A stretch of 64,000 bases of DNA from an uncultured bacterium (GCA_902461945.1 CABPZQ010000001.1:114004-178003), one strand, 5' to 3'; shown: positions 10,052 through 58,137, counted from the stretch's first letter. Made by a program: numbers and translations. The notes: generated by a model from the letters alone, not told the origin.

Positions 10052-10462
10052 TTATTTCAACGTCATACCAAATAAAATAGATTTTAATTTTTCTAAAGAC
10101 GTTTTCTTTTCTAAAGCCTCTGCAGCTAAGAGTAAATACGCCGTTTTATCATCACTAACTGCCAATTTCTGGATTATTTTATTTAACTTTGAATAATTTT
10201 GTTTAAACTTCAAAATGCTATCTGATGTCATATTTTCACAATTATTAACAGAATCTTCAAACGTAAATAAATCTTTATAAGAAACATTTAAAGCTTTACA
10301 AAGTTTTTCCAGAGTCTCTGCAGTTACAAAACTATCACCGGACTCTATACGTGCCAGCTGTCGAATATCTATATCCACAAGTTCTGACAAGCATTCTTGA
10401 GTCATATTATAATATTGTCTTAATAATTTTACCTGTTTACCGAACTGCTCTTTTAAAGGCAT
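10052..10462 (-). CDS. XRE-family HTH transcriptional regulator
   Basis: HTH: MTQECLSELVDIDIRQLARIESG. AGGAGA RBS. Divergent from the pilin-like gene at 10605. Confidence 0.75.
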   Translation of the reverse strand: MPLKEQFGKQVKLLRQYYNMTQECLSELVDIDIRQLARIESGDSFVTAETLEKLCKALNVSYKDLFTFEDSVNNCENMTSDSILKFKQNYSKLNKIIQKLAVSDDKTAYLLLAAEALEKKTSLEKLKSILFGMTLK

Positions 10463-10476
10463 TTAGCTATCTCCTG

Positions 10477-10502
10477 TCAATTAAATTATAAAATTTAATT
10501 GA
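10477..10502. promoter_or_regulatory. AT-rich palindrome in the divergent XRE/pilin intergenic region
   Basis: caattaaatt-ataa-aatttaattg: 10-bp perfect arms. Confidence 0.35.
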
Positions 10503-10604
10503 TTTTTAATAATGACAAATTATTTCATATTTCTAATATATTTATTGACTTATGAATTTAAATGTCATATTATATTAATCAATTAGCATACTTGGAGGTG
10601 AATT

Positions 10605-11306
10605 ATGAGTATAAATAATTGCAAAAAATCAGGTTTCACACTTGCAGAAGTTCTGATAACACTTGGAATTATAGGTGTAGTTGCAGCAATTACAATACCC
10701 GGGCTATTAACTACTCATAAAGCCCAAAGACTGAAATCACAGTTTTTAGAATCTTATTCAATAATCCAGCAAGCCTTCAAGCAAATGGAAGCTGATGATG
10801 TTTCATTAGACCCGAACACATATCCAACAGGAACATTTTATCAAACTTTTATGAACTACCTGCAAGCTCCTTTTGACTGTGGTAAATCAAACAACTCTTC
10901 AGGAAAGAAAATCTTACCCTGCTACGATTACTCAAACGCAGCAAAAACTTACAAGTCACTAGATGGGAAATCAACAGTTGCGTATAACTGGTTTGACGAT
11001 GGTCAAATCGCCCTACAGAATGGAACACTTTTACTCATTGAAAACTATACAAATATTAATCAATTATGGGTATCTGTGGATTTAAACGGTTTTAACAACC
11101 CGCCTAACAGATGGGGATATGATTTATTTACTTTTCAATTTATAGAGGGCGAGTTATTAACAATGGGAGATAAAAAAACGAAATACAACGATATTGAAAA
11201 ATACTGCAACTTAAAAGGTTCAGGAGCATTTAACGGAGCTGCTTGCGCACAATTAGCAAAAACAGACACTGATTATTTTAAAACTTTAGTCAGAACACTG
11301 CATTAA
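10605..11306 (+). CDS. prepilin-type N-terminal cleavage/methylation domain protein (pilin/pseudopilin-like)
   Basis: KSGFTLAEVLITLGIIGVVAAITIP class III signal. Paralog of 48379..49059, sharing DLFTFQF...KYCN...FNG(A/I)ACAQ. Confidence 0.8.
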   Translation: MSINNCKKSGFTLAEVLITLGIIGVVAAITIPGLLTTHKAQRLKSQFLESYSIIQQAFKQMEADDVSLDPNTYPTGTFYQTFMNYLQAPFDCGKSNNSSGKKILPCYDYSNAAKTYKSLDGKSTVAYNWFDDGQIALQNGTLLLIENYTNINQLWVSVDLNGFNNPPNRWGYDLFTFQFIEGELLTMGDKKTKYNDIEKYCNLKGSGAFNGAACAQLAKTDTDYFKTLVRTLH

Positions 11307-12026
11307 TGGCTCAAACGGGGATTTTTCTTTCGCAAAAAGAATATCTATACAACGTTCTTCTATTAAATGTTTTATTACAGGTAAGACAAGAATTTCAGAC
11401 TCAAAATGCCCAATATCATAAACAACAATTTCACTCTCCAGTGCTGTGTGAAATTTCAAATCACCTGTAACAAGGCAATTTGCTCCAAGATTTTGAGCCT
11501 CTTGTATAAAATCAGAACCGCTCCCGGCACAAAAAGCAATACGACGCAACTCTTTAATTCCTCTGTTATTTATAATTCTTGCATTTGGAGAAATTACAGA
11601 AAGCATTTTAGAAAATTCTCTAACAGCAATACTTTCTTCAAATTCTACAAATCGTAAATATTCATGTTCTATTTGCAGCTTTCTATCATCCAGATTTAGT
11701 TTAGCGATAAGTGTATCTGTTGTACCACTGTATGCCTTATCAAGGTTTGTATGAGCACAATAGATATCAATATTTTTCCAGCAGCAAGGAACACAAAATG
11801 CCGGATGATGCGAAATTATCATATCGCAACCACAATTTTTCGCTTGCAAAACAATATCATCCGTCGGCGTTAAACACAACATTATTTTAAAAACTTCTTT
11901 TTTATCAGTCTCAACTATCCAGCCGGAAGCATCCCAGCTTTCAGCATTCTCTACAGGTGCAAAGTCTTCTATCTTTTTTATAATTTCATATTTATTCACA
12001 AATATACTCCAAAATTTCTCTTGCAA
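11286..12026 (-). CDS. Nif3-like dinuclear metal centre protein
   Basis: 246 aa. MIISHHPA and HTNLD metal-ligand motifs and a C-terminal DIGHFESE. Confidence 0.7.
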   Translation of the reverse strand: MQEKFWSIFVNKYEIIKKIEDFAPVENAESWDASGWIVETDKKEVFKIMLCLTPTDDIVLQAKNCGCDMIISHHPAFCVPCCWKNIDIYCAHTNLDKAYSGTTDTLIAKLNLDDRKLQIEHEYLRFVEFEESIAVREFSKMLSVISPNARIINNRGIKELRRIAFCAGSGSDFIQEAQNLGANCLVTGDLKFHTALESEIVVYDIGHFESEILVLPVIKHLIEERCIDILFAKEKSPFEPLMQCSD

Positions 12027-13167
12027 TCACTGACTTTGAAGCCTTTTCAAAAGTTTTAGCACCTCCTGATTTATCTAAAACAGTAACTTCATTTTCATCA
12101 GATGAAAAACCTATATCCGAACGGGAAATATCATTTGCAACAAGAAAATCACAGCCTTTTTTTTGAATTTTTTCTTTCGCATTTTGGAGCAGATTTTCAG
12201 ATTCTGCACAAAAGCCAACTACGATTTGCGAAGTTTTCTTTTCACACAAACCTTTTAATATATCAGGATTTTTGACTAACTCTAAAGACAATGTATCATC
12301 TGATGTTTTTTTCATTTTTTGTTCAGAATAATTTTTAACCCTGTAATCTGCAACTGCAGCAGCCATAATTATATAATTCGCATTTTTAAACTCATTATCT
12401 ATAGCCTTTTGCATATCAATCGCGGATTTTACATTTACGATTTTATATGGAGCTTCAAAATGCTTTGTAGTAATCAGAACAACTTCGGCTCCCATTTCAC
12501 ATGCACAATCAGCAATGGCTTTTCCCATCTTTCCGGATGAATAATTTGAAATATATCTAACAGGATCAATATCTTCAATAGTTCCACCAGCTGTTACAAC
12601 AATTTTTTTTCCCAGCAACACTTGTGAATAATTTAAAGATTCAACAACTGAATCATAAATTTTATCAATAGAACAAAGTCGCCCTTTACCAATATATCCA
12701 CAAGCCAAAAAACCACTTTCAGGCTCTAAAATTTCAACCCCTAAGCTTTTCAACTTTGAAATATTTTCTTGAACTATTTGATTATTCCACATATTACAAT
12801 TCATTGCAGGTGCAATAATCATTTTTTTTGAAAAAGCACAAGCAATCGATGTCAACAAGTTATCAGCAACTCCTTGAGCAATTTTAGAAATTGTATTAGC
12901 TGTAGCCGGAGCAATAACCATAACATCAGCTTCATCCGCTAGTGAAATATGCTCAGGCTTCCATTTTTTAACATCAAATTCTTGCACATAAACTTCATTT
13001 TGGCTTAAGTTTTGTAATGTAAGTTTAGTAACAAAATTCAATGAGTTTGGAGTTGCTACAACCTTTACATTTGCACCATTCTTTTTAAATTTTCTAATCA
13101 ATTCACAAATTTTATAAGCCGCAATTCCGCCAGTTATACCAACTAAGATTGTTTTACCATTAAGCAT
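11992..13167 (-). CDS. coaBC: bifunctional phosphopantothenoylcysteine decarboxylase/phosphopantothenate-cysteine ligase
   Basis: N-terminal flavoprotein domain (ILVGITGGIAAYK), a C-terminal CoaB domain, 391 aa. Confidence 0.9.
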   Translation of the reverse strand: MLNGKTILVGITGGIAAYKICELIRKFKKNGANVKVVATPNSLNFVTKLTLQNLSQNEVYVQEFDVKKWKPEHISLADEADVMVIAPATANTISKIAQGVADNLLTSIACAFSKKMIIAPAMNCNMWNNQIVQENISKLKSLGVEILEPESGFLACGYIGKGRLCSIDKIYDSVVESLNYSQVLLGKKIVVTAGGTIEDIDPVRYISNYSSGKMGKAIADCACEMGAEVVLITTKHFEAPYKIVNVKSAIDMQKAIDNEFKNANYIIMAAAVADYRVKNYSEQKMKKTSDDTLSLELVKNPDILKGLCEKKTSQIVVGFCAESENLLQNAKEKIQKKGCDFLVANDISRSDIGFSSDENEVTVLDKSGGAKTFEKASKSVIAREILEYICE

Positions 13168-13168
13168 T

Positions 13169-14735: not shown

Positions 14736-14751
14736 TAAAAAGTTATTGTAA

Positions 14752-16416
<1,665 letters not shown>

Positions 16417-17160: not shown

Positions 17161-17175
17161 TATATCTTTACCTAT

Positions 17176-20003: not shown

Positions 20004-20173
20004 TTGGAAAACCTCCTTAACACTTTAATACACACTAATAATAAAACACTTAATAACTTTATTTTGACCAATTAATTTTATTTTGCAAACTATTGTTACA
20101 AAAATTTACAAACAATTTGGAATATTTTCAATTGTCGTGTCATCTATATACATGTAGAGGAGGAGAGTATAAA

Positions 20174-23100
20174 ATGGTTGGAAAGCAAGATACACTGATT
20201 TATATTGAACAGGAAAACAAAACTGAAGCAGAATTTATGTCTAGGAGCTTTGTTAACAGTACTATAAAAAACAGAGCATACATTAACGCACTTGGGGCCG
20301 AATTGGTTATGAAATATTTAGCTTCAGAGGGGATAGATATTTCTGACACTCACAACATGCATTCAATATCTAAAATCCTCGAAAAAATTGACATATCAGA
20401 CATCTTGTTGCCTAATATTCATATTGATGTAAGAGTCATCTTTGACGAAAACCAAATATTTATTCCAAAAACACATTTTCAACTGGAAATAACTCCTGAC
20501 ATTTATGTTGTACTTAAACTTGCAAAAGATTTCAGCCATGTAGAATTTTTAGGATACTTTGAACCGGATTCACTAAATTTAAAACTTTGCAACAATGATT
20601 ACTATTTCTTTGAAAAAGAAAAATTACATGCTCCATCTACATTAAAACAATTTATTAAAAATTTTACAGGGAACACATCCCGTGGACTCTCTCAAGATGA
20701 TATTTTGAGAGGAAGAGAATTATCTATTGCTATGGCTGACCATAATATTTCAGATTCTGAGCAAAAAGAATTAATTGAACTTTTACTATTAAGTAGCGAA
20801 TTAAGAGAAAGTGTTTTGGAATTTGATAACTTTGAAACTCTATCATACAGCGTCGGCTCAACGTTATCCAAAAACAATACGGAACAAACAAAATCAGCAG
20901 CAATAATTTTAGACCCAGAACAAGACACCTCTGAGCAAAATGAAGAACAGCAAAATAATCAGGAAGAACAAACAGGTAATACTGAAGAAAATATTGAGGA
21001 TTTAACAGATAATACTCTTGAAGAAATTGATTTTTCAAATACTCAGGATGACATAGTACTAGATGAAAGCTTTTTCGAGTTGACCGAACCAGAAACTGCT
21101 GAAAATCTATCAGGAAATAAAGCTGATACTGAACAACCTGAAGCAGAAGCTGAAAACATTTTGGATTTTGAACAAAAAGACTCAAGCGTTACAAATATCT
21201 CAGATATACAAAATCCACAAGAAGAGACCTTGCTGGAAATCGAAGATTTGGTAACAACAGAAGAAAATATTGAACCCCTTGAAGAATTAGAATTAAATAG
21301 TCAAGATTTAATTCTTCCAGAAGCCGAAACATTACAGCTTGATGAAAATATTCCTCAAGAAGAAAATACATTAGAAAAAACAGTTGGTGATGCCGTTCAA
21401 AAAGCACTGAAAAAATCCGAAGAAATATCCACACCTGCAAATGACGATAATATTGAGCAAGGCGCCTCAAAAGATGCAATAAAACTAGCAGGAGTTTCAG
21501 GTGACATTGTTAACGAATTACTCAACAAAAATATAGAAAGCCAACAAGAAGAACTTAATAAAATTGACTATTCACAAATATCAACAAATGCGACAGAAGT
21601 ACCTGAACACATAGCAGCCTACGATCTTTCATCTGCAAAAATCGAAATGGACGCACAGGCAGAAGCTTCCGGACAATTTGATACACCAAAAGATCTTTCT
21701 GATTTCAAAACAGTAGAAATAAAACAAACTATAGGCGAGGAAGAAACTTTTGTTCCTGAAACTATAGATTTAGAAAGCATGGAATCTGTTGAAACTGAAG
21801 ATTTCAACGAAAACACTGAAAGCATTGTAGATTTAGAACATTTATCAACGATAGATTCCCCTACAAAACCAGTAGACGACTTGGAAGAAAAACTACAAAA
21901 TAACAATTCTGATGAACATTTATCAGATATGAATTTTTCAAACATGTCTTCATTTACAATAAACGAAGATGGCTCATCTCCAATAGATGACATCGATATC
22001 AATTTTAATAATGATAACGATGAACATCTTGTTGATTTTGGACCAGCCTCCAATACCTTAATAATAGATGATACACCACAACAATACTATTCTTCATCTA
22101 CAGATGAATCTCTTGAAGCAGATTTAATGCTTGAAGATGGTTTCTCTACAGATGAAATTTTCGAACCGGAAACCAAAAAAGAAGAAGTTACTTTAGTAGA
22201 CGATACACCACAAGAAACTTCAAATAATACAAACGAAACAATCACAATGGAAGAACTTTCAATTGATGAGACTTTTGAAGATACAATGTCACTAGACGAT
22301 TCTAATATTTTGCTTGACGAAAATCTTTCGGGTGAAGAATTTGATTTGGCTACAGAAACAACAATTGAAGAACTTTCACCTTCTCTTGAAAATGATGAAT
22401 CATTAAATATACTGGCAGAAAACTTAGCTGAACCGATGTTTGAAGAACCTTTGCCTGAAAATGATATTATAATTAACGAAACAATAGAACCAAATAATAA
22501 GGCTGATATTGAATCAATAGAACTTCCTGCAGCTCAAATAGATACCGGTGATGAATTATCACCTGATATGCTGCTTGATAATGTAATCAATAACATTGAA
22601 ACAGATAAGAACATGACAGCTAATGAAACTGTCAGTGAAGAAATACAAACAAACATAAATGAAACAATAGAATTACCAGAAAGCACAATTCTTGAGGAAA
22701 CAAATTTTGAACAAATTCAATTACCGAACGAAGTTTCTGAAACCAGCACAACTCAAGAATCTGATATTATTCAAAATAATTCTCTAGAACTTGATAATCA
22801 GGATTGGTTAAACGATACAACCTATGATAACATTCCGGATGCTGAAATTCAAGCACAATCCGATATTGAAACAATGGAACCTGATAATATACTGGATGAA
22901 TTATCACCTGAAGAATTTATAACCGAACCTGAACCAAATAACGAAAAAATCTTTGCAGTAACAGAAAACTCTGTTACAATTAGTGATATGAACTTTACAC
23001 CGGGAGAAATTCCAATAGATATCAACAACAATGAACAACCTCAGCTTGACGGTCCTGAACAGCTTGAAAGCATATACGATACAGATAACTCGGTACCAGG

Positions 23101-23839
23101 TTCTGCATTATTACAAAATCCTGGCAGATTAGGCTCCGCAAATAGAGGAGGAGCAAAGATTGGCATGGGTATGGGACTAGGTATTATCGGAGTCATTCTT
23201 GCAATAGCAATTGTAGGCATAATTGGATTTTCAGTATCAAAAATGTTGAATAAACCAGCTGATGACACTCCACAACCAATTACAGATGACCCAATTCCTA
23301 CAAACACGGATAATGGAGTTGCAGATGTAAACACACTAAATGTGAATCCAGATAATGTTGTAAACATGGATAGCACAAACAATACACCTGCTCTTCCTGC
23401 AGCTAAACCTGCAAAACAAAAACCAGTAGTAACTTCGCAACAACCGACAACAGTTCAACAACCAGCCAGACAGCAAAAAGTAATGCCTGCAACCTCATTC
23501 ATCGAAATTAACAAACTGACTTGGGAAATACCTGATTATATTTCATACAACGAGCAATTTAAACAATACTTCCAAGCAGCCGGTAAAAGTTTAAAATTAT
23601 CTTTAAATAGCGATTTACTTCTGGCAACAGATTATGCATATTCAGATCAAATAAGAGTAACTGTTACTTTTGCTAAAGATGGCACGTTTAAAGATGCAAA
23701 AATCTTATTATCAAGTGGCTCAAATCAAATAGATAATATTGTGTTACAAACTGTTAACCAAACCTTAAGAGTCCTTAAAGCCCCTCATAGCGTAGGAAAT
23801 GACGAAAGCACCACAGTTATACTTAAAATTTATTTTTAA
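20174..23839 (+). CDS. giant acidic single-pass membrane protein with C-terminal TonB-C-like domain
   Basis: Start at MVGKQ with a GAGGAGGAG RBS. There is a structured N-domain of about 200 aa, then a D/E-rich low-complexity region of about 800 aa. It then has one TM helix (GIIGVILAIAIVGIIGF), a P/T/Q-rich linker and a C-terminal block VTVTFAKDGTFKDAKILLSSGSNQIDNIVLQTV. That block resembles the TonB C-terminal fold. Confidence 0.65.
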   Translation: MVGKQDTLIYIEQENKTEAEFMSRSFVNSTIKNRAYINALGAELVMKYLASEGIDISDTHNMHSISKILEKIDISDILLPNIHIDVRVIFDENQIFIPKTHFQLEITPDIYVVLKLAKDFSHVEFLGYFEPDSLNLKLCNNDYYFFEKEKLHAPSTLKQFIKNFTGNTSRGLSQDDILRGRELSIAMADHNISDSEQKELIELLLLSSELRESVLEFDNFETLSYSVGSTLSKNNTEQTKSAAIILDPEQDTSEQNEEQQNNQEEQTGNTEENIEDLTDNTLEEIDFSNTQDDIVLDESFFELTEPETAENLSGNKADTEQPEAEAENILDFEQKDSSVTNISDIQNPQEETLLEIEDLVTTEENIEPLEELELNSQDLILPEAETLQLDENIPQEENTLEKTVGDAVQKALKKSEEISTPANDDNIEQGASKDAIKLAGVSGDIVNELLNKNIESQQEELNKIDYSQISTNATEVPEHIAAYDLSSAKIEMDAQAEASGQFDTPKDLSDFKTVEIKQTIGEEETFVPETIDLESMESVETEDFNENTESIVDLEHLSTIDSPTKPVDDLEEKLQNNNSDEHLSDMNFSNMSSFTINEDGSSPIDDIDINFNNDNDEHLVDFGPASNTLIIDDTPQQYYSSSTDESLEADLMLEDGFSTDEIFEPETKKEEVTLVDDTPQETSNNTNETITMEELSIDETFEDTMSLDDSNILLDENLSGEEFDLATETTIEELSPSLENDESLNILAENLAEPMFEEPLPENDIIINETIEPNNKADIESIELPAAQIDTGDELSPDMLLDNVINNIETDKNMTANETVSEEIQTNINETIELPESTILEETNFEQIQLPNEVSETSTTQESDIIQNNSLELDNQDWLNDTTYDNIPDAEIQAQSDIETMEPDNILDELSPEEFITEPEPNNEKIFAVTENSVTISDMNFTPGEIPIDINNNEQPQLDGPEQLESIYDTDNSVPGSALLQNPGRLGSANRGGAKIGMGMGLGIIGVILAIAIVGIIGFSVSKMLNKPADDTPQPITDDPIPTNTDNGVADVNTLNVNPDNVVNMDSTNNTPALPAAKPAKQKPVVTSQQPTTVQQPARQQKVMPATSFIEINKLTWEIPDYISYNEQFKQYFQAAGKSLKLSLNSDLLLATDYAYSDQIRVTVTFAKDGTFKDAKILLSSGSNQIDNIVLQTVNQTLRVLKAPHSVGNDESTTVILKIYF

Positions 23840-23870
23840 GTATGCTATAATAATTCTATAGTAGAGGAAC

Positions 23871-24437
23871 TTGGGTGTGGAATTAACACAGGATAAGATT
23901 GATTTAATAAGTAAGATAATTAAAAACGACCGTAAATATCCAAATAATGAGGATTTGTACGACGATTTTTTCAATGAAACATGTAAACGTTCAGTTGCAA
24001 TCATTAATGCTGTTGATTCAGAAATAACACTTGAAGCTTACCTAAAACGTGTTGTTACAACATCAATTATCAATGTGCTAAAAGACTCCGGAAGATTAAG
24101 AAGAACTCGTTCCGGTTACATGTCAACAAAAGAAGTTCTGCTAGATAATCACAATAAAATAGATTACTCTAATGTGTCCGTTAGCTATACTGATATAAAA
24201 CTTCCGGATACCCCTGAAGATATTGTAATTCAAAAAGAAATTCTTGAATTTGTTTCAAATACAATTAAAAATATCGATAAAGAAGAACCGGAAAAAGACT
24301 ATTTACATATCTACACTTTGCGTTATGATAAAGGCATGACTCAGAAAGAAATTTCTGAAGAGCTTGGCATCTCTCAATCTGAAATCTCTAAAAGATTATA
24401 TAAATTGATGGATAAAGTTAAAGATATTATTGGCTAA
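23871..24437 (+). CDS. sigma-70 family RNA polymerase sigma factor (ECF-like size)
   Basis: C-terminal region-4 HTH LRYDKGMTQKEISEELGISQSEISKRLYKLMDK. The start is TTG at 23871 or GTG at 23877, with an AGGA 9 nt upstream of the GTG. Confidence 0.6.
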   Translation: MGVELTQDKIDLISKIIKNDRKYPNNEDLYDDFFNETCKRSVAIINAVDSEITLEAYLKRVVTTSIINVLKDSGRLRRTRSGYMSTKEVLLDNHNKIDYSNVSVSYTDIKLPDTPEDIVIQKEILEFVSNTIKNIDKEEPEKDYLHIYTLRYDKGMTQKEISEELGISQSEISKRLYKLMDKVKDIIG

Positions 24438-24445
24438 TTTTTAAT

Positions 24446-27409
24446 ATGAAATGTCCTGTTTGTAAAAAAAATATTTCAAAATCGGTATTAAAATGTCCTT
24501 ATTGCAAAACCAGAGTAGGTTTGTTATGCAGCAACTGCAATACAATCAATTCTGTTGGCAATTTTGTCTGCAAAAAATGCGGAGAAGAATTGTTAAAAAT
24601 TTGTCCACACTGTAAAAGTGTAAATTTTCCAGGTGCAGCCAAATGCAGAAAATGCGGTCTACAGTTTAATATCCCTAAGAACACCACTGAAGATAATACC
24701 CCTCAAAACCTGCTATACAAACCCAAACTGTACAATAGAGAGAAGGCTTTAGAGATTTTGACAGATGACCTGCTTGCCAAAGAAAAAAAAATATTTTCTA
24801 TAACCGGAGACAAAGGTATTGGCAAAAGCACATTGCTAACGAAAGCAATGGCAAAATTAAACAATTATAATTTTCAATGGTGTACGGGTAAATGCACCTC
24901 ACTGAGCCAGCTAAGTCCCGGCGGCGTAATTCAAGATATGCTGCTAAATCTGTTTAAACTGCCGAATTATTGTATTAATAATGACGAACTGAAAAAAGAT
25001 GCAGTTAAATTTTTTACAAATGAATTTAAATTCCTAAATCAAGACGAAATTCTGATATTTTTTAATTTCCTTTACAACTTTCAAGATGGAAATTATGAAG
25101 AGATTATAAATAATAAAAAACGCACTTATAATATTTTACTGCAAATTTTTGAGGCATTCACGCACACTGAAAAATTTATCTACGTAATTGACAATTTTGA
25201 TTTTATAGACGGCTTTTCTATCGAATTTTTCACACATTTCATGCAAAAAAATTCCAATTGGAATAATTTAAAATTTATTGCAATATACAATGAACACAAA
25301 CCAATAAATAATTTTTTCAATTTTGAAGATAAAGATACAAAAGCGTATGTTGACATAAACCTCGCACCGCTTACGATAAAAGAACTTGAACACAGTATAA
25401 AACTCACAGGTGAGGCTGGAACTTACGTTACAGAAAGAGAAAAAGAAGTCATTTTTGCAAAAAGTAATGGGAATCCTGCATTTGTTGAACAGGCAATCAG
25501 CTACTCATTTGATTGTCAAATAGCAGACAAAGCGTTTTTACTACCTAATAATTTTGAATTTCTGATAAAAGAAAGACTAGAAACTCTAAAAAAAATAAAC
25601 AATGCAGCATACAAACTGCTTAGCGGGGCTGCAATTTTAGGAGATAAACTTAATCTGGCTCTTTTAAAAGAAATTTTTGGCTACAAGAATCAAGAATTTA
25701 ACGACATAATTTCATATCTTGTGAAATCAAGCTTTGTAAAACCGTACAGCGAAATTTATTATGAATTCAACAATCTTTTATTATGGGAAACAGTATTAAA
25801 AAATATAACTCATAATATAGAATTTGAAGAACTTAATATAAAAATAGGCAAAGCTTTGAGTATTTATACGCTTAACACCAATGCAACAATGGCTATGCTA
25901 GCTCATAATTTAAAAGAAAACCGTATGGCATTTGATATCTGGACTAAAACAACAAGGCTGGCTTCATACATTGGAGATATAAACTTATATGTAATCTCGC
26001 AAAAACAGTGCCTTGCACTCCTGAATGAATTTAATGAAAACGAAACATTAAATATCCGATATAACATTAGCGAAAGGCTTGGTAAATTGTTAACAGAATA
26101 TGATCCGGAAGAAGCTCTGGAATATTTACCTGATGCAATTTCTCATGCCAAATCAAATAACGACGAAACGAAAGAAATAGAACTGTTAGGATATTTAGCA
26201 CTATGCTGCAAAAAAACGGGTAACTATTTTGGTGACGTAGAATGCGTTGACAATGTTCTAAACAAAATGAAACCAAATCAGGAACTTGAAACAGCAATGA
26301 TAAAAAGTACAAAAATACCATCATTGCTCAATATAGGTAATTGCGGAGAAGTAATAAACCTTATAGACAACGATATTTTACCTATTCTGGATTCATATTT
26401 AACAAAACCACGTTTAAATAAATCACTTCCTCTTGGTTTATTATATGAAACCTGGCTTGAAGTTTACCTTTCTTTAGGAACAGCTCTTGCACTACAAGGA
26501 AATGATAGAGCTTTCACAATCTTAAATAATCTATTTGATATCATTGATAAACAAAAAATTAATGATAAAGCTTTAGTTTGCAAAGCCAAATTAATACTGG
26601 CATATGCAAATACAATGAAGGGCAATTTCAGAACATCAGAAAATATACTCCAAGGTTTGAGTAACCTTTTGGAAGCTGATGAAAATTGGATTAGCCCTGA
26701 AATAATTTCAAAATACAATCTAACAAACATAATTAATAAATTTCTGGAAAAGAAATACGACAATTTACAGCAAATACTATCAGATGCCGTAATTTTTGCA
26801 AATGATACAGGAGATAATTTTACTAAAAATATCTTAAAACTTTTACTTGGTAAAATGTTCAAGGATAACAAACAGGCAAAACATGCTGTTGAAATTTATA
26901 ATGAACAAATAACATATTTTGCTAAAGAAAAAATAGCACTGGGTGCATTACTTTCGTGGTATTTAATAGCAGAGGCTACAATGGTTACTGAATCACCAAA
27001 AAATGCTATTGAAATTGCTTCTCAAGCATTGGAAATTGCCCAAAATCCGCAAATCAATAATACCTATTTTATTGTTTTATTAAAAACTCTTATAGCAAAA
27101 GCGTATATAGAAATTTCAGATTACGAAACAGCTAAAATAAACATTGAATCCGCAATAATTTTAGCAAAAAAATATAGCCAGAATGATTTACTCTCACGAG
27201 TATATTTATTGTATGGCAAATATTATCAAGAACTCGGCACTGTGCAGTCGCCAAAACAGAATGAATATCTTAAAGCATCTGCAAAAATGTATGAACAAGC
27301 AATGGATATCGTTGGAGAAAAAACTCGAAATATATATGTAAAAAATCAAATCGAAGAACAGAAAAAAATCCTCATATCATATTGCGATTTAAACGGATTT
27401 AATAAATAA
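24446..27409 (+). CDS. zinc-ribbon / P-loop NTPase (STAND-like) / TPR-like repeat protein
   Basis: There are three CxxC...CxxC zinc ribbons in the first 70 aa, a Walker A (GDKGIGKST) and a Walker B (FIYVIDNFD). A long helical repeat C-terminus follows. It starts 8 bp after the sigma factor. Confidence 0.7.
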   Translation: MKCPVCKKNISKSVLKCPYCKTRVGLLCSNCNTINSVGNFVCKKCGEELLKICPHCKSVNFPGAAKCRKCGLQFNIPKNTTEDNTPQNLLYKPKLYNREKALEILTDDLLAKEKKIFSITGDKGIGKSTLLTKAMAKLNNYNFQWCTGKCTSLSQLSPGGVIQDMLLNLFKLPNYCINNDELKKDAVKFFTNEFKFLNQDEILIFFNFLYNFQDGNYEEIINNKKRTYNILLQIFEAFTHTEKFIYVIDNFDFIDGFSIEFFTHFMQKNSNWNNLKFIAIYNEHKPINNFFNFEDKDTKAYVDINLAPLTIKELEHSIKLTGEAGTYVTEREKEVIFAKSNGNPAFVEQAISYSFDCQIADKAFLLPNNFEFLIKERLETLKKINNAAYKLLSGAAILGDKLNLALLKEIFGYKNQEFNDIISYLVKSSFVKPYSEIYYEFNNLLLWETVLKNITHNIEFEELNIKIGKALSIYTLNTNATMAMLAHNLKENRMAFDIWTKTTRLASYIGDINLYVISQKQCLALLNEFNENETLNIRYNISERLGKLLTEYDPEEALEYLPDAISHAKSNNDETKEIELLGYLALCCKKTGNYFGDVECVDNVLNKMKPNQELETAMIKSTKIPSLLNIGNCGEVINLIDNDILPILDSYLTKPRLNKSLPLGLLYETWLEVYLSLGTALALQGNDRAFTILNNLFDIIDKQKINDKALVCKAKLILAYANTMKGNFRTSENILQGLSNLLEADENWISPEIISKYNLTNIINKFLEKKYDNLQQILSDAVIFANDTGDNFTKNILKLLLGKMFKDNKQAKHAVEIYNEQITYFAKEKIALGALLSWYLIAEATMVTESPKNAIEIASQALEIAQNPQINNTYFIVLLKTLIAKAYIEISDYETAKINIESAIILAKKYSQNDLLSRVYLLYGKYYQELGTVQSPKQNEYLKASAKMYEQAMDIVGEKTRNIYVKNQIEEQKKILISYCDLNGFNK

Positions 27410-35693: not shown

Positions 35694-38600
35694 TTAATCT
35701 TTAATCCAACGGAAACTCTTTACATAATTATTTCCATTAATATCACCATAAATTTCAGCCTTAAAAACTCTCAACGTATTATTTTTATCAAAATTAGGTA
35801 TTTTATTTATATTACTTGTAGATTTTGGATTAATTTCATTGATACTAATTCCAGGAATTGCGCTAAATAACCTGTTCAACGAAGCATTACCTATTCGGCC
35901 AAGTAATGTTGAGAAATTTTTAGAAAGACTTCCATAAACTTCCATGTCTGCAACAAGTGTTGCTATATTATAACTACCAGTCAAATACATATTCAAATCT
36001 TTACCTTTTGAAAATACCTGAATATCATTTGCAATACCATCTTTAATCTTAATTGAACCACTTATACTCTGGAAATTCCCTGTTTTTAACGGAGTAATCA
36101 AATCTATAATCCCATTAATTGAAAGCCCGGTAATTCCACCTGTTATCAGGTTACCAGCTTTTAACAAATATTCAAGAGAACCAAGTTTCGGCATTCTGCC
36201 ATCTGCAACCGTAAAATTACCATTTCCGGACAATGTATTTATACAATCTACACTTGTAACACCTTTACAGGCAACACTCATTTCGCCTGTAACCAAACCA
36301 TACATCTGCCCAGGCATATCAAAGAAATTTTCACCTATAATAGAAGCATCGGCATTTTTAATATGCATTTCACCATAGCCATTCTGTGACGATAGATTAT
36401 AGCTTAATCGTCCATCAACAGTCCCATTTGCCAGATTAAAACGATATTTATTAATATTAAATATATGATCGGCTCCTAACGATATATCTGATTTGAAATT
36501 AGTTGCATTAGCTTTCTTTATCAAAATTTTATCAGCATTCACTTCCGCGTGTTTAATGATAAATTGTTCCGGAGTAACCGGCATAGAACCGTTCGCTTTG
36601 ATATGATTTGTTCTTGTGTAATCTGCATCAAAATCATTCAATGCATTTGATATAACATTCAAATCTAAAACATCCATCTGAACATTAACATCATCAATAA
36701 CATATGGAGGTTCTGTTTTATTCAAAATCTTAGCAAACATAATAATATCATTTGTTAAGATAACCCCTTTTGATTTCAAATAAATAAAATCATTCTTAAA
36801 ATCTACGCTAATATCACGAATTGTAGAATCAAGTAATGGAATATCAACACTTGTGACATTTAAATTTCCTAATATTTTTGGCGCTAAAGAAGTTCCATTT
36901 ATTATCACATCAGATGTAAACACACCCTGTTTTATTGTGGGTTTCTTCATTAAAATATTGAAAATCTTAGCATTTGTAGGCTGATTAGTCGTAATTTTTA
37001 AATTTTTAAAACCTAGAACATTATCCTTCAAAAGCATTACTTCCCCAGAGGCGTTAAGCTGATTCTGCACAGAGGCTCTTTTGTTTTGAGATGTAATTGT
37101 TTGGTTATATCTTAAATAATTCAATTTAATCTTATTAGGATACAATACAACATCCGAAATCAAAGATACCGGATTTGTCGTCATCCCTTCTGAACTGATT
37201 GTTCCTGTCGGGGCTCCTGCAAGAGTTGCACCCATATAATAAATAGAAGAATTTTCTCCAATATTTAAATTTGATCTAATTCCAAGACGATTCAATGTTC
37301 CTCTAAGATGAGCATTAAAATTCACATCTCCTTTTAGTTTTACAGGATAAACAGATTTCGAATTCAAAAATCTATCAAAAAACACTTGAGTAGGTTTTGC
37401 ACTTACAAACAAATGCAAATTCGGTTTTGTATAGATATCTGAAACACTCCCATCAATAAACACTGGCATTGAACTGACTTTTGTATTTACACGTTCTAAA
37501 TAAAGTTCATTCCCTCGAACTTTTGCCTGACCATTCAAAATTCTTACAAGAGTATTATACGGTTTGTAAACAAAACTTATATTTGCCAAATTAGTATTTG
37601 CCCAAATTTTGCCATTATGAATATGACCATTGATATTTGTTTTACCTCTAATATCAGATATCAATGCCATTTGTTGTTCTAATTCTTTTGGGAGCTTCAT
37701 TTGTGTTTTTACGACATTAAGAACACTTACATCAAAATTTTTAAAATTAAAGACAGCATTCGAAATATTCATTTTATCGTAAATATCTGTAAGAGTTAAA
37801 GAAAGTGTATATGGATTATTATTAAACAATCCTGATAACTGTGATGTCTTAAGCTCCCCTTTTCTAATTGTAAATGTTCCGCCATTAATTTTTATAGGAT
37901 TTGATGAAGCTCTGTTTGATAAGAATTTTCCATCTACAAGAACATTATTATAATCAAGTTTTCCAGCTTCGGCAACTCCCTTATAATGTCCGGTAAAAGC
38001 AACATCTATCTTGCCCACTTCTTTTTGATAAGGCAAATTCATCTTTGGATACAACAAATCATTACAATCCCCTATTGCAAACCTATCAGATTTAGCAGTT
38101 AAATCAATCTGAGAATTTGACCCTGTACCTTTTACAAAAATTTTAGAACCTCTAACATAACCGTTTATATCATAATCTGAATCGTATTGATTAAAATTAA
38201 CTACTCCATTTACCCTGGTAAATGGCAAGTAGGTATCCTGCATCACAGTTGTCGCGTTATGAAGAGTTATTGTTCCTTTAGCAAATAAATCTTTGTTAAA
38301 TTCAATAGTTTCAGCATTTTTTGCATTACCGTAAATATTTAGAAATACATCAGCAACACCACGAGGATTAGTAAAAGGTGCAACAACTTTTTGAATATCT
38401 ACAAGGATTGGAGAAGTATTAATTACTTTTATCAACTGAGGAATATTCTGACCTTTTGAAGTAACAAGAACATTCAACTTTCCTAAAACAGAACAATCAC
38501 CCTTTATTTCAACAGGTTTACCATTTATTGTTGCATGATAACTTTTAAAAGTCGTTTGCGTATCATTAAAAATAACTTCACCTGAACCATTTTTTAAAAC

Positions 38601-44359: not shown

Positions 44360-44390
44360 AAAATTACAAGAGTCAGCAACAACTCTAAAA

Positions 44391-45031
44391 CTAGTAATCT
44401 ATATTATTAATTACGTTATACATACAACCAATTCCTTGAATTGGTCCAAGATTCTTTAAAGATTTTTTTCTATCACATGAAATTTTTACAGGCCATCTGG
44501 ACTCTGACACCCCCATAGGATAAAGATTTCCGTCTCGATTCACCCAAAAGGTAAAAACATCTCTTCCCCAAACATTGGGCATTGACTTATACCCATTAAC
44601 ATCTACTGTTATAAGTAACAAATCTGAAAAGTCAGAATTTTGAATCATCCAAAATTGCCCGTCTAAAGTAGAAAATTGACCCTCATCCATCAGTGAAGCA
44701 TCCGCATTTTCACCGTTTAAGGTTCTATAAACATTAGAATTATATGAAAAAGGAACGCAATTTCTTAAGCCACAATCCTGTGCAACTTTAAAATATGCCA
44801 TAAAATCATTTTTAAAAGTTTGAGGATTTAAATAATATTCCTCCAAAACTTTACCATCATCCTGCATAGACCTAAAAGCTTGCTGAGCAACACTATAAGC
44901 TTTTTTAGCAGCTGTTTTATATTGCATATCCTGAATTTTTGTAATTAAGCTAGGAATTGTTATTGCTGCAACAATCCCAATGAGGCCAACAGTTATTAAT
45001 GATTCTGCTAAAGTAAAGCCTTTATTATATC
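44391..45031 (-). CDS. prepilin-type N-terminal domain protein, paralog; non-canonical or lost start
   Basis: In-frame upstream of the ORF-track Met the sequence encodes NKGFTLAESLITVGLIGIVAAITIPSL (class III signal). No ATG/GTG/TTG lies between the upstream stop and this signal. ATT at 45031 is the only candidate. Confidence 0.5.
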
Positions 45032-45144
45032 TACAATAAATATTGGTTTGATAAACTTTATTAAACTAGCAGAAGTATTTGATATCAGCCTTGATGAATT
45101 AGCTGATTTTAAAACAAAATCTAAATAAAATACAAAAAAAATAT

Positions 45145-48057: not shown

Positions 48058-48276
48058 TTAAGAAACATTTTTCAATAAATCATTAATATCAATATCTAAA
48101 ACTTTTGAAATATCATAAACAAGGAAAATTGACGGAGTCTGCAACCCTCTTTCTAAAAGGCTTATAGTACTCTCGCTAACATCGACTTTTTCAGCCAGTT
48201 CAGACTGAGTTATTCCACACCGATACCTTTCTGCTTTTAAATTTCTAGCAAAGATTTTATTGCGATGGTCTTTCAT
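48058..48276 (-). CDS. XRE-family HTH transcriptional regulator
   Basis: HTH ITQSELAEKVDVSESTISLLERG. Start set at MKDHRNK, because the ORF-track start at 48327 lies inside the palindrome. Confidence 0.6.
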   Translation of the reverse strand: MKDHRNKIFARNLKAERYRCGITQSELAEKVDVSESTISLLERGLQTPSIFLVYDISKVLDIDINDLLKNVS

Positions 48277-48317
48277 AAACAAATTATAACGGCTTGACAA
48301 TTTTTTATTAAGAGGAT

Positions 48318-48361
48318 AAACTACCACTAACTAGTAGTTAACTACTAGTTAGTGGTAGTTT
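48318..48361. promoter_or_regulatory. perfect 44-bp palindrome (putative operator) between the divergent XRE and pilin-like genes
   Basis: aaactaccactaactagtagtt|aactactagttagtggtagttt: 22-bp perfect arms centred on GTTAAC, 18 bp upstream of the pilin ATG at 48379. Confidence 0.6.
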
Positions 48362-48378
48362 TAAACGTGGAGATATAC

Positions 48379-49059
48379 ATGAAAAATTCTAAACAAAAAG
48401 CATTTACACTCGCCGAGGTGCTTATTACACTAGGGATAATAGGTGTAGTTGCAGCAATGACAATCCCTAACTTAATTACAAACTACAAAGCACACCAGCT
48501 CCGTTCACAGTTTTTGAAAGCCTATTCACTAACGCAACAAGCTTTTAAACTTATGGAAGAAGATGATGTATCACTTGATCCTACATCGTATCCGGGTGTA
48601 ACATTCTACAAAACATTTCAAAAGTATTTTACAGGCAGTATAGACTGCCAAGCCCCAAGCGCACGTCAGAAAAAGCCATGCTACCATCTTAACAGCTCCG
48701 CACCTGATGCCTATAAAACATACCACGGCTCATCTTTTCATGGATTTAAATTAGATGACGGACAGTTTGCACTGCAAGACGGAACACTATTTCTGTTTGA
48801 AAATCCGAATGCCAGGGATACACCTATACTTATAAGTGTTGATATAAACGGATTTGGCAATAAACCAAACAAAGCCGGTTATGATTTGTTCACATTCCAA
48901 TTTTTTGACGGTGAATTAAAAACAATGGGAGCCATTGGCACGCAATACGATGTAGAAAAATATTGTAACAAAAATACCAATAATGCTTTTAATGGTATTG
49001 CCTGTGCTCAAAAAGCTAAAGAAGATCCGGATTATTTTAAAAATTTATTAAAAGAATAA
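48379..49059 (+). CDS. prepilin-type N-terminal cleavage/methylation domain protein
   Basis: MKNSKQKAFTLAEVLITLGIIGVVAAMTIP. Paralog of 10605..11306. Confidence 0.8.
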   Translation: MKNSKQKAFTLAEVLITLGIIGVVAAMTIPNLITNYKAHQLRSQFLKAYSLTQQAFKLMEEDDVSLDPTSYPGVTFYKTFQKYFTGSIDCQAPSARQKKPCYHLNSSAPDAYKTYHGSSFHGFKLDDGQFALQDGTLFLFENPNARDTPILISVDINGFGNKPNKAGYDLFTFQFFDGELKTMGAIGTQYDVEKYCNKNTNNAFNGIACAQKAKEDPDYFKNLLKE

Positions 49060-53661: not shown

Positions 53662-53665
53662 AATA

Positions 53666-54502: not shown

Positions 54503-54561
54503 ACTATACCTTTTACCAAATAAAGTAAAACAAATACTATACAAAAATTGCCCATATAAAA

Positions 54562-55593: not shown

Positions 55594-55634
55594 AAAATAA
55601 TAATACCAGAAATAAAACTTCAGGACATTAAAAT

Positions 55635-56876
55635 TTATGTAAGGTTCAACTTAAATCGTTCGGCAAGTTCACTAATCATATATAAAGAACCACATATTAC
55701 ATTAAGTCTTCCATCATTAAAATCTATCTGAGTCTCTTTAGTTAACTCTTTTGCATGTATAGGACTTGCCTCCATCAAAGCTCTTACATCACAAGAATTT
55801 TGATGGCTAAAATGATAAAAATACACTTCCGGAGTATTATATTCAGTCTGCCCGATAAATTGCTCAAACAATAAATTCAGCATTTTTGCATAATCCTTAT
55901 TATTCAAACAGCCAAAAATATAACGTCTTCTAGAAATTGGATAATAAGAATCTAAACTTTGAACAAGAGAACTTATCCCGTTTGGATTGTGTGCACCGTC
56001 GATAATAAGGTTCTTATCCTCAATATATTGAAATCTGCCAATGTGCTTAACCTGCTTTAGCCCCTCATCTATTATATTTTGCGAAATAGTTGGGAATATA
56101 GTTTCAATAGCTGCAAGTGCCAGAGACAAATTTTCTTGCTGATAAGTCCCCTTTAAAGATAACTTTGAAACATCTGCAAATGGTGCTACCATCACAAGCA
56201 TCGAACTTTTTTCATCCGCAACATCTCGATAAACCTCCCGTCCCTCAAATACAATACAAGGACAATTTGGTTTTATAATACCTGCTTTTTCAAAAGCTAT
56301 TTTTTCAATAGTATCACCCAATCTATCTGTATGATCATAATCAACATGAGTTATAATAGAACAAAGATTTTTTTTTATAACATTTGTCGCATCAAACCTG
56401 CCGCCCAGACCAGTTTCTAAAACTACAACATCCACATTATTATCTGCAAAATATTTAAACATTACAGCAGTTAATATTTCAAACTCGGTTAAATCAATAC
56501 CGTTTTTATCAGCTAAATTTGATATTTCAAAAACATATTTTGCAAAATCTTCATCAGGAATATTAGCATTTTCCCCTGCACCCTGCTGTAGAGTGTTAGG
56601 GAAAGGGGGCAATAAAATCTTTATCCTCTCATTATATTTAAAAATATGCGGAGAAGTGTATACACCAACTTTTTTACCGGCACAAGCCAGAATTGACGAT
56701 AAAATTGCACATACAGAACCTTTTCCATTTGTTCCTGCAACGTGAATACAATCTAACTTGTCTTGAGGATTTCCTAGCAGCTCTAAAATTTTAGAAATTC
56801 TTTCAAGCCCCAGAGACACATGAAACTTTCCAACAGAAGTTAATAACTTTACTGCATCATTATATTTACCGCTCAT
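55635..56876 (-). CDS. folC: folylpolyglutamate synthase/dihydrofolate synthase
   Basis: Mur-ligase P-loop HVAGTNGKGS, 413 aa. Confidence 0.85.
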   Translation of the reverse strand: MSGKYNDAVKLLTSVGKFHVSLGLERISKILELLGNPQDKLDCIHVAGTNGKGSVCAILSSILACAGKKVGVYTSPHIFKYNERIKILLPPFPNTLQQGAGENANIPDEDFAKYVFEISNLADKNGIDLTEFEILTAVMFKYFADNNVDVVVLETGLGGRFDATNVIKKNLCSIITHVDYDHTDRLGDTIEKIAFEKAGIIKPNCPCIVFEGREVYRDVADEKSSMLVMVAPFADVSKLSLKGTYQQENLSLALAAIETIFPTISQNIIDEGLKQVKHIGRFQYIEDKNLIIDGAHNPNGISSLVQSLDSYYPISRRRYIFGCLNNKDYAKMLNLLFEQFIGQTEYNTPEVYFYHFSHQNSCDVRALMEASPIHAKELTKETQIDFNDGRLNVICGSLYMISELAERFKLNLT

Positions 56877-56912
56877 ATTAAACCTCTATTTCTATAAAAT
56901 TAAAATCTATAA

Positions 56913-57242
56913 TCATTTTAGCAAAAAAGTTCTTATATATTTATAAGCTAATATTAATTCTTCTTCCTTAAGAATATCTAACATAGATATTATTTCAGAT
57001 TTTAAATCTGTAAAATTCTGTAAATGATAAAATTCAAACAAATCTTTTGGTTCAACCGATAAAGCACGCGAAAATCTATCAATTAATTCTGGAGATGGAA
57101 AATTTTTACCACTTTCAATACAACTAATATGTTTATCATCAACATTTACCAATTCGGCAAGTTGAGCCTGTGTGTAATGCATTTTTTTGCGGTATTCTTT
57201 AATTTTACGTCCAAATAATACTTTTATATTTGCCATTTCCAC
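56913..57242 (-). CDS. XRE-family HTH transcriptional regulator
   Basis: HTH YTQAQLAELVNVDDKHISCIESG. GAGGTG RBS. Divergent from the pilin-like gene at 57385. Confidence 0.7.
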   Translation of the reverse strand: MEMANIKVLFGRKIKEYRKKMHYTQAQLAELVNVDDKHISCIESGKNFPSPELIDRFSRALSVEPKDLFEFYHLQNFTDLKSEIISMLDILKEEELILAYKYIRTFLLK

Positions 57243-57384
57243 CTCGTTTTCATTTTACATAACCAGCCATGGTATTGGAATTAAAATATAGGTAAAAATT
57301 TGACAAAAACTTACCTGATAAGTATAATAATTTACGTAGAACGTAATTTTCCTTAATATATTTACCTAACGTATAGGAGAGAAA

Positions 57385-58137
57385 ATGAATAAGAAACAAC
57401 CAAAAAAATTAGCTTTTACACTTGCAGAAGTTTTAATTACATTAGGTATAATTGGAATTGTTGCAGCCTTGAGCATTCCAACACTAATTTCTGCTTATCA
57501 AAAGAAAACCACTGCTCTTGAAGTAAAAAAAGCCTACACAGAACTTAATCAGATATTAAAAATGGCAATCGCAGACTACGGCGAACCTCTCGGCTGGCAA
57601 TATTATGGAGCTGATGAATTGCCACAGTGGGTTCAAACATATTTTGTACCATATGTTAACGGTGCACAACATAAAGCTTGTAATTCAAACGAAAGATGTT
57701 TCGGACTTGCTTTGCCATTTCCTTTACATTTTAAAAAACCAGGTTCTGTTAATACAATGGTTGGGCAATATGTAGTATCAAAACTTGGCAGTCCTGTTGC
57801 CTATGCCTTCTTTAGGTACCCATCGCCATATGACAAAGTAACCAGAGTAAAAGCCTACATACGAAATCCTAAAAAATATGCTATGCTTGGCAAGGATGTA
57901 TTCACTTTTATACTAACAACGGCAGACGAAAATCCGACATTCAAACCTTACGGCTATGGTACTCTCGGATCTTACGGAATGAGCACAAAAGATAGAAACA
58001 CTCTACTTGGAACAGGATGGGGAGGATGCAATTCCAAAGCAAGCGGTTCCGGTTACTTTGGTCCAGGAGATGCCTGTGCCGCCGTCATAATGATGGATGG
58101 CTGGAAGATTGCCAAAGATTACCCATGGACAAAATAA
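57385..58137 (+). CDS. prepilin-type N-terminal cleavage/methylation domain protein
   Basis: KKLAFTLAEVLITLGIIGIVAALSIP. Shares KDVFTF with the other paralogs. Confidence 0.75.
   Translation: MNKKQPKKLAFTLAEVLITLGIIGIVAALSIPTLISAYQKKTTALEVKKAYTELNQILKMAIADYGEPLGWQYYGADELPQWVQTYFVPYVNGAQHKACNSNERCFGLALPFPLHFKKPGSVNTMVGQYVVSKLGSPVAYAFFRYPSPYDKVTRVKAYIRNPKKYAMLGKDVFTFILTTADENPTFKPYGYGTLGSYGMSTKDRNTLLGTGWGGCNSKASGSGYFGPGDACAAVIMMDGWKIAKDYPWTK

Follow-up and report, generated by a model that had tools for sequence, protein, structure and literature searches.

Why do small regulators of the XRE family stand repeatedly beside genes for prepilin-type proteins? The question is raised by a stretch of 64,000 nucleotides from an uncultured bacterium (GCA_902461945.1, CABPZQ010000001.1:114004-178003), hereafter the window, in which positions are counted from the first nucleotide unless a related locus is named. 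The window has a GC content of 32.5% and belongs to the Gastranaerophilales/Melainabacteria lineage, gut bacteria with cyanobacteria among their relatives. It contains exactly four prepilin-type genes and three intact XRE genes, and each XRE gene lies directly upstream of, and divergent from, one pilin-like gene. A preliminary description of this DNA had proposed three such loci (10052-11306, 48058-49059 and 56913-58137), a fourth paralog without a regulator, and a family of individually repressed, secreted or surface proteins that would not form a structural pilus. The analysis presented here supports the pairing, revises the status of the fourth locus, and makes it somewhat probable that the pairs are accessory cassettes, each with a pilin gene under a private repressor, and that their products feed a pilus machinery encoded elsewhere.

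Pairing of XRE regulators with pilin-like genes

All four prepilin-type and all three XRE open reading frames (ORFs) were found at the places previously claimed. The N_methyl (PF07963) and TIGR02532 models scored above cut-off for all four pilin-like proteins, and HTH_3 (PF01381) scored 37-51 bits for all three regulators (cut-off, 23). A six-frame motif scan of the 64 kb detected no prepilin N-terminus beyond these four, and no further intact XRE gene was found in the window using the three regulators, and then a profile of their relatives from related loci, as queries; the only extra profile match, at 23871-24437, proved to be a sigma-70 region-4 protein. Chance as the source of the adjacency is excluded, because all three XRE genes, in a window of approximately 60 genes, adjoin members of a set of four pilin-like genes in the same divergent orientation, and because the arrangement recurs widely elsewhere. 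None of the genes belongs to a pilus or type II secretion (T2S) operon, as had been stated; the window holds no assembly gene, and the genes near the cassettes include those for uridine kinase and ATP synthase, folC, accC and nif3.

The recurrence was analysed in 80 related loci, picked through their pilin genes, together with the window. A divergent XRE gene lies directly upstream of 36 of the 92 prepilin-motif genes with enough upstream sequence, and the same placement applies to 36 of the 41 XRE-profile matches; the remaining five include at least two false matches to sigma-70-like proteins. The 56 unpaired genes comprise 4 tandem copies and 52 solitary genes, and an XRE remnant was found beside two of them only, including the fourth gene of the window (pilin 4). 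Because these first loci had been picked through the pilin, loci were also sampled through the regulator. Two homologues of the third regulator (R3; P0142 and P0198, 75-78% identical) are each divergent from a 219-amino acid (aa) DUF6613 prepilin gene in a quite different neighbourhood, and another (P0197, 72% identical) is divergent from a gene for a 576-aa Cys-repeat/Gly-rich protein with the prepilin start MKKIFYLA/FSLVE (the slash marks the predicted cleavage site). The locus of this last cargo extends over L116 1110-2840 and L117 1-237 and combines long Cys-rich repeats and a Gly_rich_2 domain with an R3-type operator pair. The XRE-prepilin association is reciprocal and independent of genomic location, and the co-occurrence elsewhere holds in the regulator-first sample as well as in the pilin-first one.

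The pilin-like proteins are paralogs, as proposed, with identities to pilin 1 of 56-58% (pilin 2), 37% (pilin 4) and 28% (pilin 3). The N-terminal motif FTLAE(V/S)LIT(L/V)G(I/L)IG(V/I)VAA had been quoted correctly; the QQAF...DD block, described as common to the paralogs, is present in three of the four proteins, and the last motif, given as (K/R)D(L/V)FTF, really reads (Y/R/K)D(L/V)FTF. The proteins carry a class III signal, a type defined by a short basic leader, Gly or Ala at position -1, Phe or Met at +1, Glu at +5 and a hydrophobic helix. In an alignment of 91 family members, F+1 is found in 89, E+5 in 90, G+14 in 89 and P+22 in 87. AlphaFold models of two pilin-like proteins are confident (predicted local distance difference test scores, 88.5 and 92.2); both have the type IV pilin fold, in which an extended alpha-1 helix packs on an antiparallel beta-sheet, and both retain F+1, E+5, G+14, P+22 and a C-terminal Cys pair. 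Together with these models, the near-invariance of the four residues marks the pilin-like proteins as predicted true pilin-fold proteins, beyond a mere pilin-like signal.

Named pilin equivalogs were not reached (GspG TIGR01710, ComGC/D/E/F, PilA NF041775 and PpdD; best scores 20-36 bits, cut-offs 49-400), and in the matches to the GspG, ComGC/D/E and PilA models the N-terminal helix alone aligns. Pilins 1, 2 and 4 match only N_methyl in Pfam and form an unmodelled sister group of the DUF6613 subfamily, with the common motif D-x-N-G-x3-P-N-x2-G-x-D-x-F-x-F. Pilin 3 (250 aa) and all 120 of its best homologues carry PF20318.4 (DUF6613) in precomputed annotation; against PF20318.3 in the local Pfam copy, pilin 3 scored 13 bits (cut-off, 24.3), and this model is matched by 21 of the 91 sampled family members. 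Pilin 1 has at least 7500 relatives in the databases, and an exhaustive search at E <= 1e-10 returned 2233 representatives of 50%-identity clusters. Nearly all loci of these relatives either bear the label Melainabacteria, Gastranaerophilales or Vampirovibrio or belong to misnamed gut metagenome-assembled genomes. Of the papers covered by a full-text literature search, none describes paired XRE regulators for an expanded pilin family of Melainabacteria, and none mentions DUF6613. Three homologues of pilin 1 (P0088, P0361 and P0365) have N-terminal extensions of 100-180 aa that resemble repeat elements (...HSELVSESI...LKQVQHD...), which suggests a repeat or an insertion like a miniature inverted-repeat transposable element upstream of some members, in place of the XRE gene.

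Regulators 1 and 3 share IESG...KDLF, in agreement with the preliminary description. The solved structures closest to the regulators by sequence are those of SinR (E-values of 2e-8 for XRE2 and 5e-5 for XRE3), CylR2, C.AhdI, C.BclI and the 434 repressor, of which C.AhdI, C.BclI and the 434 repressor are matched at E 1e-3 to 1e-4. Two other identities were considered and rejected. A type II toxin-antitoxin system would be a co-directional operon with a small toxin, whereas the two genes here diverge and the product encoded beside the regulator is a pilin-fold protein of 226-250 aa; matches of the regulators to antitoxin models are sub-threshold and confined to the helix-turn-helix (HTH) domain. 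A restriction-modification controller would accompany an endonuclease/methyltransferase operon, and none is present among the housekeeping neighbours listed above.

Promoters and candidate operators

Candidate regulatory sites lie in the intergenic regions, most clearly in pair 2, whose features are as follows.

48058-48276, minus strand: XRE2, a minimal XRE regulator of 72 aa (HTH_3 at 2e-13; orthologues also 72 aa)
48283-48311, minus strand: predicted XRE2 promoter, TTAATA-17-TATAAT, back to back with that of pilin 2
48294-48322, plus strand: predicted pilin-2 promoter, TTGACA-17-TAAACT
48318-48361, unstranded: perfect 44-bp palindrome (z 14.8), from the pilin-2 -10 to just before the Shine-Dalgarno sequence
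48319-48339 and 48340-48360, unstranded: two adjacent candidate operator dyads, AACTAC-N9-GTAGTT, within the palindrome
48379-49059, plus strand: pilin 2, a prepilin-type protein of 226 aa

Both genes of this pair stand, with corrected starts: XRE2 most likely begins at 48276, which gives the length of its orthologues, and pilin 2 begins at the ATG at 48379, with GGAG 6 nt upstream, and not at 48352. Because the -10 of the regulator (48283-48288) ends 6 nt before its ATG, the XRE2 mRNA is probably leaderless. The motif AACTAC-N9-GTAGTT has two matches in the window, both at 48319-48360 (0.11 expected). The two dyads are 100% conserved in eight strains, and in the whole control region of these strains a single base differs, near the pilin Shine-Dalgarno sequence in L087. 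The dyad core and the layout, including the back-to-back promoters, persist in the distant orthologues L008, L005 and L004. Among the eight strains, the XRE2 coding sequence shows synonymous change with no nonsynonymous polymorphism (pN = 0); the ratio of nonsynonymous to synonymous polymorphism (pN/pS) is 0.43 for pilin 2 versus 0-0.08 for neighbouring genes.

Pair 3 has a different operator type with a comparable arrangement.

56913-57236, minus strand: XRE3, 107 aa and of SinR-like size, with an HTH domain and a helical tail of ~40 aa
57290-57316, unstranded: candidate operator O1, AGGTAA-N15-TTACCT, centred on the pilin-3 -35
57300-57328, plus strand: predicted pilin-3 promoter, TTGACA-17-TATAAT (12/12)
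57341-57367, unstranded: candidate operator O2, ACGTAA-N15-TTACCT, between the predicted start site and the Shine-Dalgarno sequence
57385-58137, plus strand: pilin 3, a prepilin-type protein of 250 aa in the DUF6613 subfamily, followed by a hairpin at 58155-58191

The existence of XRE3 stood and its start was moved to 57236, giving 107 aa as in about 120 homologue clusters. O1 and O2 are 51 bp apart and are the only two dyads of the AGGTAA-N15-TTACCT type in the window (0.2 expected). The same dyad pair, at a spacing of 51-52 bp, occurs in the R3-type cassettes of L112, L114, L116 and L117, which have different neighbours and cargo. Another palindrome, AATTTACGT-3-ACGTAATTT (57329-57349), was considered as an operator and set aside; it is window-specific and of a length expected by chance, and the conserved dyads fit better.

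Pair 1 has the following features.

9742-11310, unstranded: stretch taken up by the pair-1 cassette, which lies as an insertion/deletion between tRNA-Gln and nif3 (comparison with L100/L102)
10052-10462, minus strand: XRE1, 136 aa, with an HTH domain (HTH_19/HTH_3 above cut-off) and a C-terminal helical extension of ~65 aa
10477-10502, unstranded: perfect palindrome TCAATTAAATT-4-AATTTAATTGA by the XRE1 start (z 3.2), a weak operator candidate
10536-10590, plus strand: candidate control region, a 55-bp block 100% conserved between strain clades in the strain alignment
10545-10573, plus strand: predicted pilin-1 promoter, TTGACT-17-TATTAT, with an internal dyad TGAC..GTCA
10605-11306, plus strand: pilin 1, a prepilin-type protein of 233 aa with the leader MSINNCKKSG/FTLAE

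The proposal that each gene has a regulator of its own is supported in pairs 2 and 3, where XRE2 and XRE3 each have a locus-unique, orthologue-conserved pair of candidate inverted-repeat operators over or just after the pilin promoter. Dyads that overlie the -35 or -10 of near-consensus promoters, as well as the early transcribed region, point to dedicated repression of the pilin genes. At another locus (L079, ~870-890 and ~4010-4030), we observed a G+C-rich hairpin, CCCTYTCCCTTA..TAAGGGNRAGGG, near the start codon of both pilin genes, which could be an RNA-level or operator element particular to its XRE subtype.

Strain variation, exchange and decay of the cassettes

The cassettes are part of the flexible genome content, with whole pairs present or absent between strains. 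XRE1 and pilin 1 are both present in 8 of the 10 contigs that encode an identical Gmk protein; L100 and L102 lack the pair as a unit, including approximately 300 bp of flank, and nif3 is joined directly to the upstream region of tRNA-Gln. Conversely, L098 (1516-2734) carries an extra pair, consisting of a 72-aa XRE gene and a 245-aa DUF6613 pilin gene, between purB and efp, two genes that are 83 bp apart in the window. Because the purB tract adjoining this cassette is only 85% identical to that of the window, import of the L098 cassette by homologous recombination is suggested.

Two other strain-variable features were observed in or near pair 1. Within its insertion/deletion, between tRNA-Gln and XRE1, an ORF-less stretch (9770-9995) has a GC content of 45-52% versus 32%. 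Strains L105/L106 alone carry this stretch in identical form, other strains having a different sequence or none in its place; Rfam gave no match to it, and its fold stability is ordinary (z -1.1 and 0.0). A further strain-variable insertion is a gene for a 352-487-aa protein with an LPD3 domain (PF18798), located between coaBC and nif3 in L099 (6854-8317) and also present in L101, L103, L107 and L108; it is missing at the equivalent window site (~11990-12030).

Regulator and cargo are decoupled in sequence. The R3 orthologues, with conserved operators and 72-77% identity among themselves, have cargos of only 22-28% identity, and the identity is 56-58% between pilins 1 and 2 and only 25% between the two regulators that belong to them. 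Co-diversification of regulator and pilin was rejected by a Mantel test over 35 pairs (rho 0.04, p 0.32). Gene conversion among the window paralogs through the conserved 5' coding region was likewise considered and is not supported, with only moderate DNA identity and a longest shared run of ~20 nt.

The fourth locus had been described as a paralog without a regulator. This part of the preliminary description was not borne out, since an XRE remnant lies opposite pilin 4, where the divergent regulator would be expected.

44391-45065, minus strand: pilin 4, a prepilin-type open frame with G/FTLAE at 45020, a likely pseudogene
45039-45128, plus strand: XRE remnant of pair 4, NIGLINFIKLAEVFDISLDELADFKTKSK followed by a stop codon, comprising helices 4-5 only (the C-terminal half of the XRE domain)

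The pilin-4 frame opens at 45065 and reaches Met 44927 without an ATG, GTG or TTG on the way; it also lacks a Shine-Dalgarno sequence and a promoter-like site. The XRE remnant aligns with profile positions 53-79 (13 bits, E 0.0085) and is the best non-annotated profile match among 1701 six-frame segments of the window. With the start and promoter of pilin 4 missing and the 3' half of an XRE gene opposite, locus 4 is best read from its sequence as a relic pair, from which a deletion removed both 5' ends together with the control region. Among contigs encoding an identical AroQ protein, the relic is present in L083, L085 and L086. In its place, L081, L082, L084 and L088 show, between aroQ and a 110-aa gene, a spacer of 41 bp that contains the hairpin AAAAATTCAGCC..GGCTGAATTTTT (4457-4502 in L081, equivalent to 44360-45144 of the window), and L087 has a different short spacer and no relic. 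Locus 4 was also considered as a silent cassette of the pilS type; it is promoterless, but the identical DNA that it shares does not exceed ~20 nt, and the XRE remnant is present.

Elsewhere in the window, a three-gene cluster (20093-27409) encodes a protein of 1248 aa in which TonB_C, at the C-terminus, is the sole domain matched, a sigma-70 region-4 protein of 188 aa, and a nucleoside triphosphatase of 987 aa with a double zinc ribbon and AAA_16. A 1497-aa ORF on the minus strand (35694-40187) has no Pfam match at E <= 1e-6.

Interpretation and comparison with known systems

The reading that we favour may be outlined as follows. Three parts would make up each cassette: a small repressor of the XRE family, operator dyads belonging to it, and a strong promoter of the sigma-70 type from which one divergent pilin-fold gene is transcribed, back to back with the promoter of the regulator. 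One or more regulator dimers would occupy the two dyads, which overlie the -35 or -10 of the pilin promoter and the early transcribed region, and would silence this one pilin gene for as long as repression lasts. In the case of XRE2, the nearest dyad adjoins the -35 of the regulator gene itself, which, with the probably leaderless mRNA, would resemble phage CI and restriction-modification controller proteins. The prepilin would be cut and methylated by a prepilin peptidase and then inserted into a filament by a type IV pilus or pseudopilus machinery encoded elsewhere, so that the cell would hold a set of separately switchable alternative filament subunits. Inserted between housekeeping genes, strain-variable and, at locus 4, decaying, the cassettes would carry fast-evolving cargo, with the regulator-operator-promoter unit and the cargo as exchangeable modules. 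The purpose could be variable adhesion, surface antigen or antigenic variation, or phage-receptor variation.

Several observations weigh against this interpretation. About 57% of the family members are solitary and without an XRE gene, and the regulator is therefore not obligatory. General palindrome enrichment upstream of paired and unpaired family genes did not differ (mean z 1.5 versus 1.1), and therefore only specific, orthologue-conserved dyads were used as evidence. No secure operator dyad for XRE1 was found in the pair-1 control region; the palindrome at 10477-10502 is weakened by three changes that break its symmetry in the sister strain clade. The promoter scan recognised no promoter for XRE3. 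Residue -1 is Ala in 53 of the 91 aligned members (58%) and Gly in 37, and Ala at this position is reportedly suboptimal for classical PilD, as studied in Pseudomonas; its predominance implies a prepilin peptidase for which Ala at -1 is acceptable or favoured. That the machinery exists in the lineage is supported by a T2SSE ATPase in L071, the only one near ~100 family members in 976 kb of related DNA, and by pilB, pilC, pilT and pilD, which are reported for a Gastranaerophilus genome (PMC5877343); this evidence comes from L071 and that other genome, and not from the window's own genome.

The preliminary description had suggested that these are not structural pilus loci. This view is at odds with the pilin fold, seen in two models, and with the retention of every polymerisation hallmark; because of both, filament subunits are the more likely reading of the pilin-like proteins as modelled. 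Under the main rival explanation, which we consider rather unlikely, the prepilin N-terminus would serve as an export or anchor signal only, and the products would be secreted or surface effectors, each gated by its XRE protein. The pairing of an R3-type regulator with the 576-aa Cys-repeat/Gly_rich_2 protein, too large and odd for a shaft subunit, fits this explanation, as do mature proteins of ~220 aa, larger than typical major pilins, and the absence of linked assembly genes; large expansions of prepilin-signal proteins with non-pilin functions are also known from Planctomycetes and Verrucomicrobia (DUF1559/H-X9-DG). However, E+5, G+14 and P+22, which matter for assembly and not for cleavage, are nearly invariant, and where the four genes of the window are concerned, both the predicted fold and the conservation of the polymerisation residues speak against this rival. 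For some cargos, such as the 576-aa Cys-rich protein in L116, export of non-filament proteins is possible. Another rival, in which a pil/gsp operon would supply the proteins as its ordinary minor pilins or pseudopilins and the proximity of XRE genes would be accidental, is hardly tenable and already contradicted: the weak GspG, ComGC/D/E and PilA matches that would favour it involve the N-terminal helix only and lie far below the curated cut-offs, there is no operon context, the adjacency is reciprocal and conserved across genomes and neighbourhoods, and the operators are locus-specific.

As to the role of the regulators, we regard it as improbable that the XRE proteins activate the pilin genes beside them or act on these genes in a dual manner. 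In favour of such a role, the dyad of pair 2 that lies nearest to XRE2 adjoins the -35 of the XRE2 promoter, and CI and controller proteins activate from a site of this kind; however, the dyads occupy occlusion or road-block positions (-10 to +30 in pair 2; the -35 and past the start site in pair 3), and the pilin promoters are near consensus (10 to 12 of 12), for which an activator should be needless. A remnant of a mobile element or prophage, with an immunity-type XRE repressor and a pilin-like protein acting as a superinfection-exclusion or receptor-masking factor, would have the same divergent layout of XRE and cargo, which is typical of mobile elements, and would account for cassettes that are present or absent between strains, one of them beside a tRNA gene. 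This origin is nonetheless very improbable, as no integrase, transposase or phage gene flanks any copy, no convincing terminal repeats or target duplications surround the pair-1 and L098 cassettes, a viral collection of 2.9 million contigs contains only 3 relatives, and the 85%-identity purB tract beside the L098 insertion points to homologous recombination.

Starting from repressor-gated pilin cassettes, a bolder picture may be drawn, which we offer tentatively as possible and on the doubtful side. Gut Melainabacteria would own a library of portable 'pilin switch' cassettes of the CI/controller type, each with a private XRE protein made from a leaderless mRNA and with a consensus promoter between two dyads, and each toggling one alternative filament subunit in some cells or conditions. 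Controller and cargo would recombine independently, perhaps at the alpha-1 coding segment, and whole cassettes would be exchanged between strains by homologous recombination. If true, this would be a previously unrecognised mechanism of surface or adhesin variation, based on repressor switches and not on DNA inversion or gene conversion, with a purpose analogous to that of phase-variable fimbriae or Bacteroides capsule switching.

The gut communities of humans and animals commonly include Gastranaerophilales, which are uncultured and about whose surface biology almost nothing is, to our knowledge, known. The present results assign a large family of thousands of sequence clusters, so far uncharacterised and in part covered by DUF6613, to predicted type IV pilin-fold proteins, so that DUF6613 gains a fold and a context. 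Over a third of the sampled members have a private XRE regulator, candidate operators are recognisable, and the units are strain-variable, which provides a testable model for the diversification and control of pili in Gastranaerophilales. The compact regulator-operator-promoter sets could be tested directly in Escherichia coli, without culturing the organism.

The arrangement is real and apparently undescribed, and it is built from familiar parts. With the controller proteins C.AhdI and C.BclI and the CI repressors of phages 434 and lambda, the regulators share a minimal XRE domain of ~70-80 aa, two adjacent dyads, an operator that abuts the regulator's own -35 and a probably leaderless mRNA. 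The target here is a divergent pilin-like gene, in contrast to endonuclease or lytic genes and to a gene downstream in the same operon, and the Cro-like antagonist of the phage systems is not present. SinR, the XRE repressor of matrix-fibre operons in Bacillus subtilis, has the same size and layout as XRE3 (an HTH domain and a C-terminal helical tail) and likewise gates genes for extracellular fibres, if the pilin-like proteins do form fibres. SinR, however, is a single global regulator antagonised by SinI/SlrR, whereas the present regulators are numerous and private, one per gene, with no evident gene for an antagonist. As in Neisseria pilE/pilS, there are several pilin paralogs, one of which (locus 4) is promoterless and lacks a start codon. 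Unlike pilS, locus 4 shows no sign of gene conversion, and because it keeps the conserved N-terminal coding region and an XRE relic, it appears to be a deletion product.

Lineage-specific expansions of the prepilin signal are known as DUF1559/H-X9-DG in Planctomycetes and as Verru_Chthon cassettes, and Elusimicrobium minutum reportedly has many PilE-like genes. These expansions resemble the present family in being large, fast-diverging and paralogous, with a conserved prepilin N-terminus and scattered genes, but their C-terminal domains are unrelated, and we know of no dedicated divergent XRE regulator described for them. A further likeness is to the type IV pilins and T2S pseudopilins, which a 2012 review by Giltner, Nguyen and Burrows is said to treat as class III signal peptide proteins. 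The basic leader, the G/F or A/F cleavage site, E+5, G+14, P+22, the long N-terminal helix on a 4-5-stranded antiparallel sheet and the C-terminal Cys pair are all shared with them. The present proteins differ in a mature size of ~220 aa, their own D-x-N-G...F-x-F motif and a mostly Ala -1 residue, and their genes are monocistronic and scattered among housekeeping genes, outside pil/gsp/com operons. As pilins and XRE repressors are both well known, the advance lies in their organisation and evolution and not in a new molecular principle.

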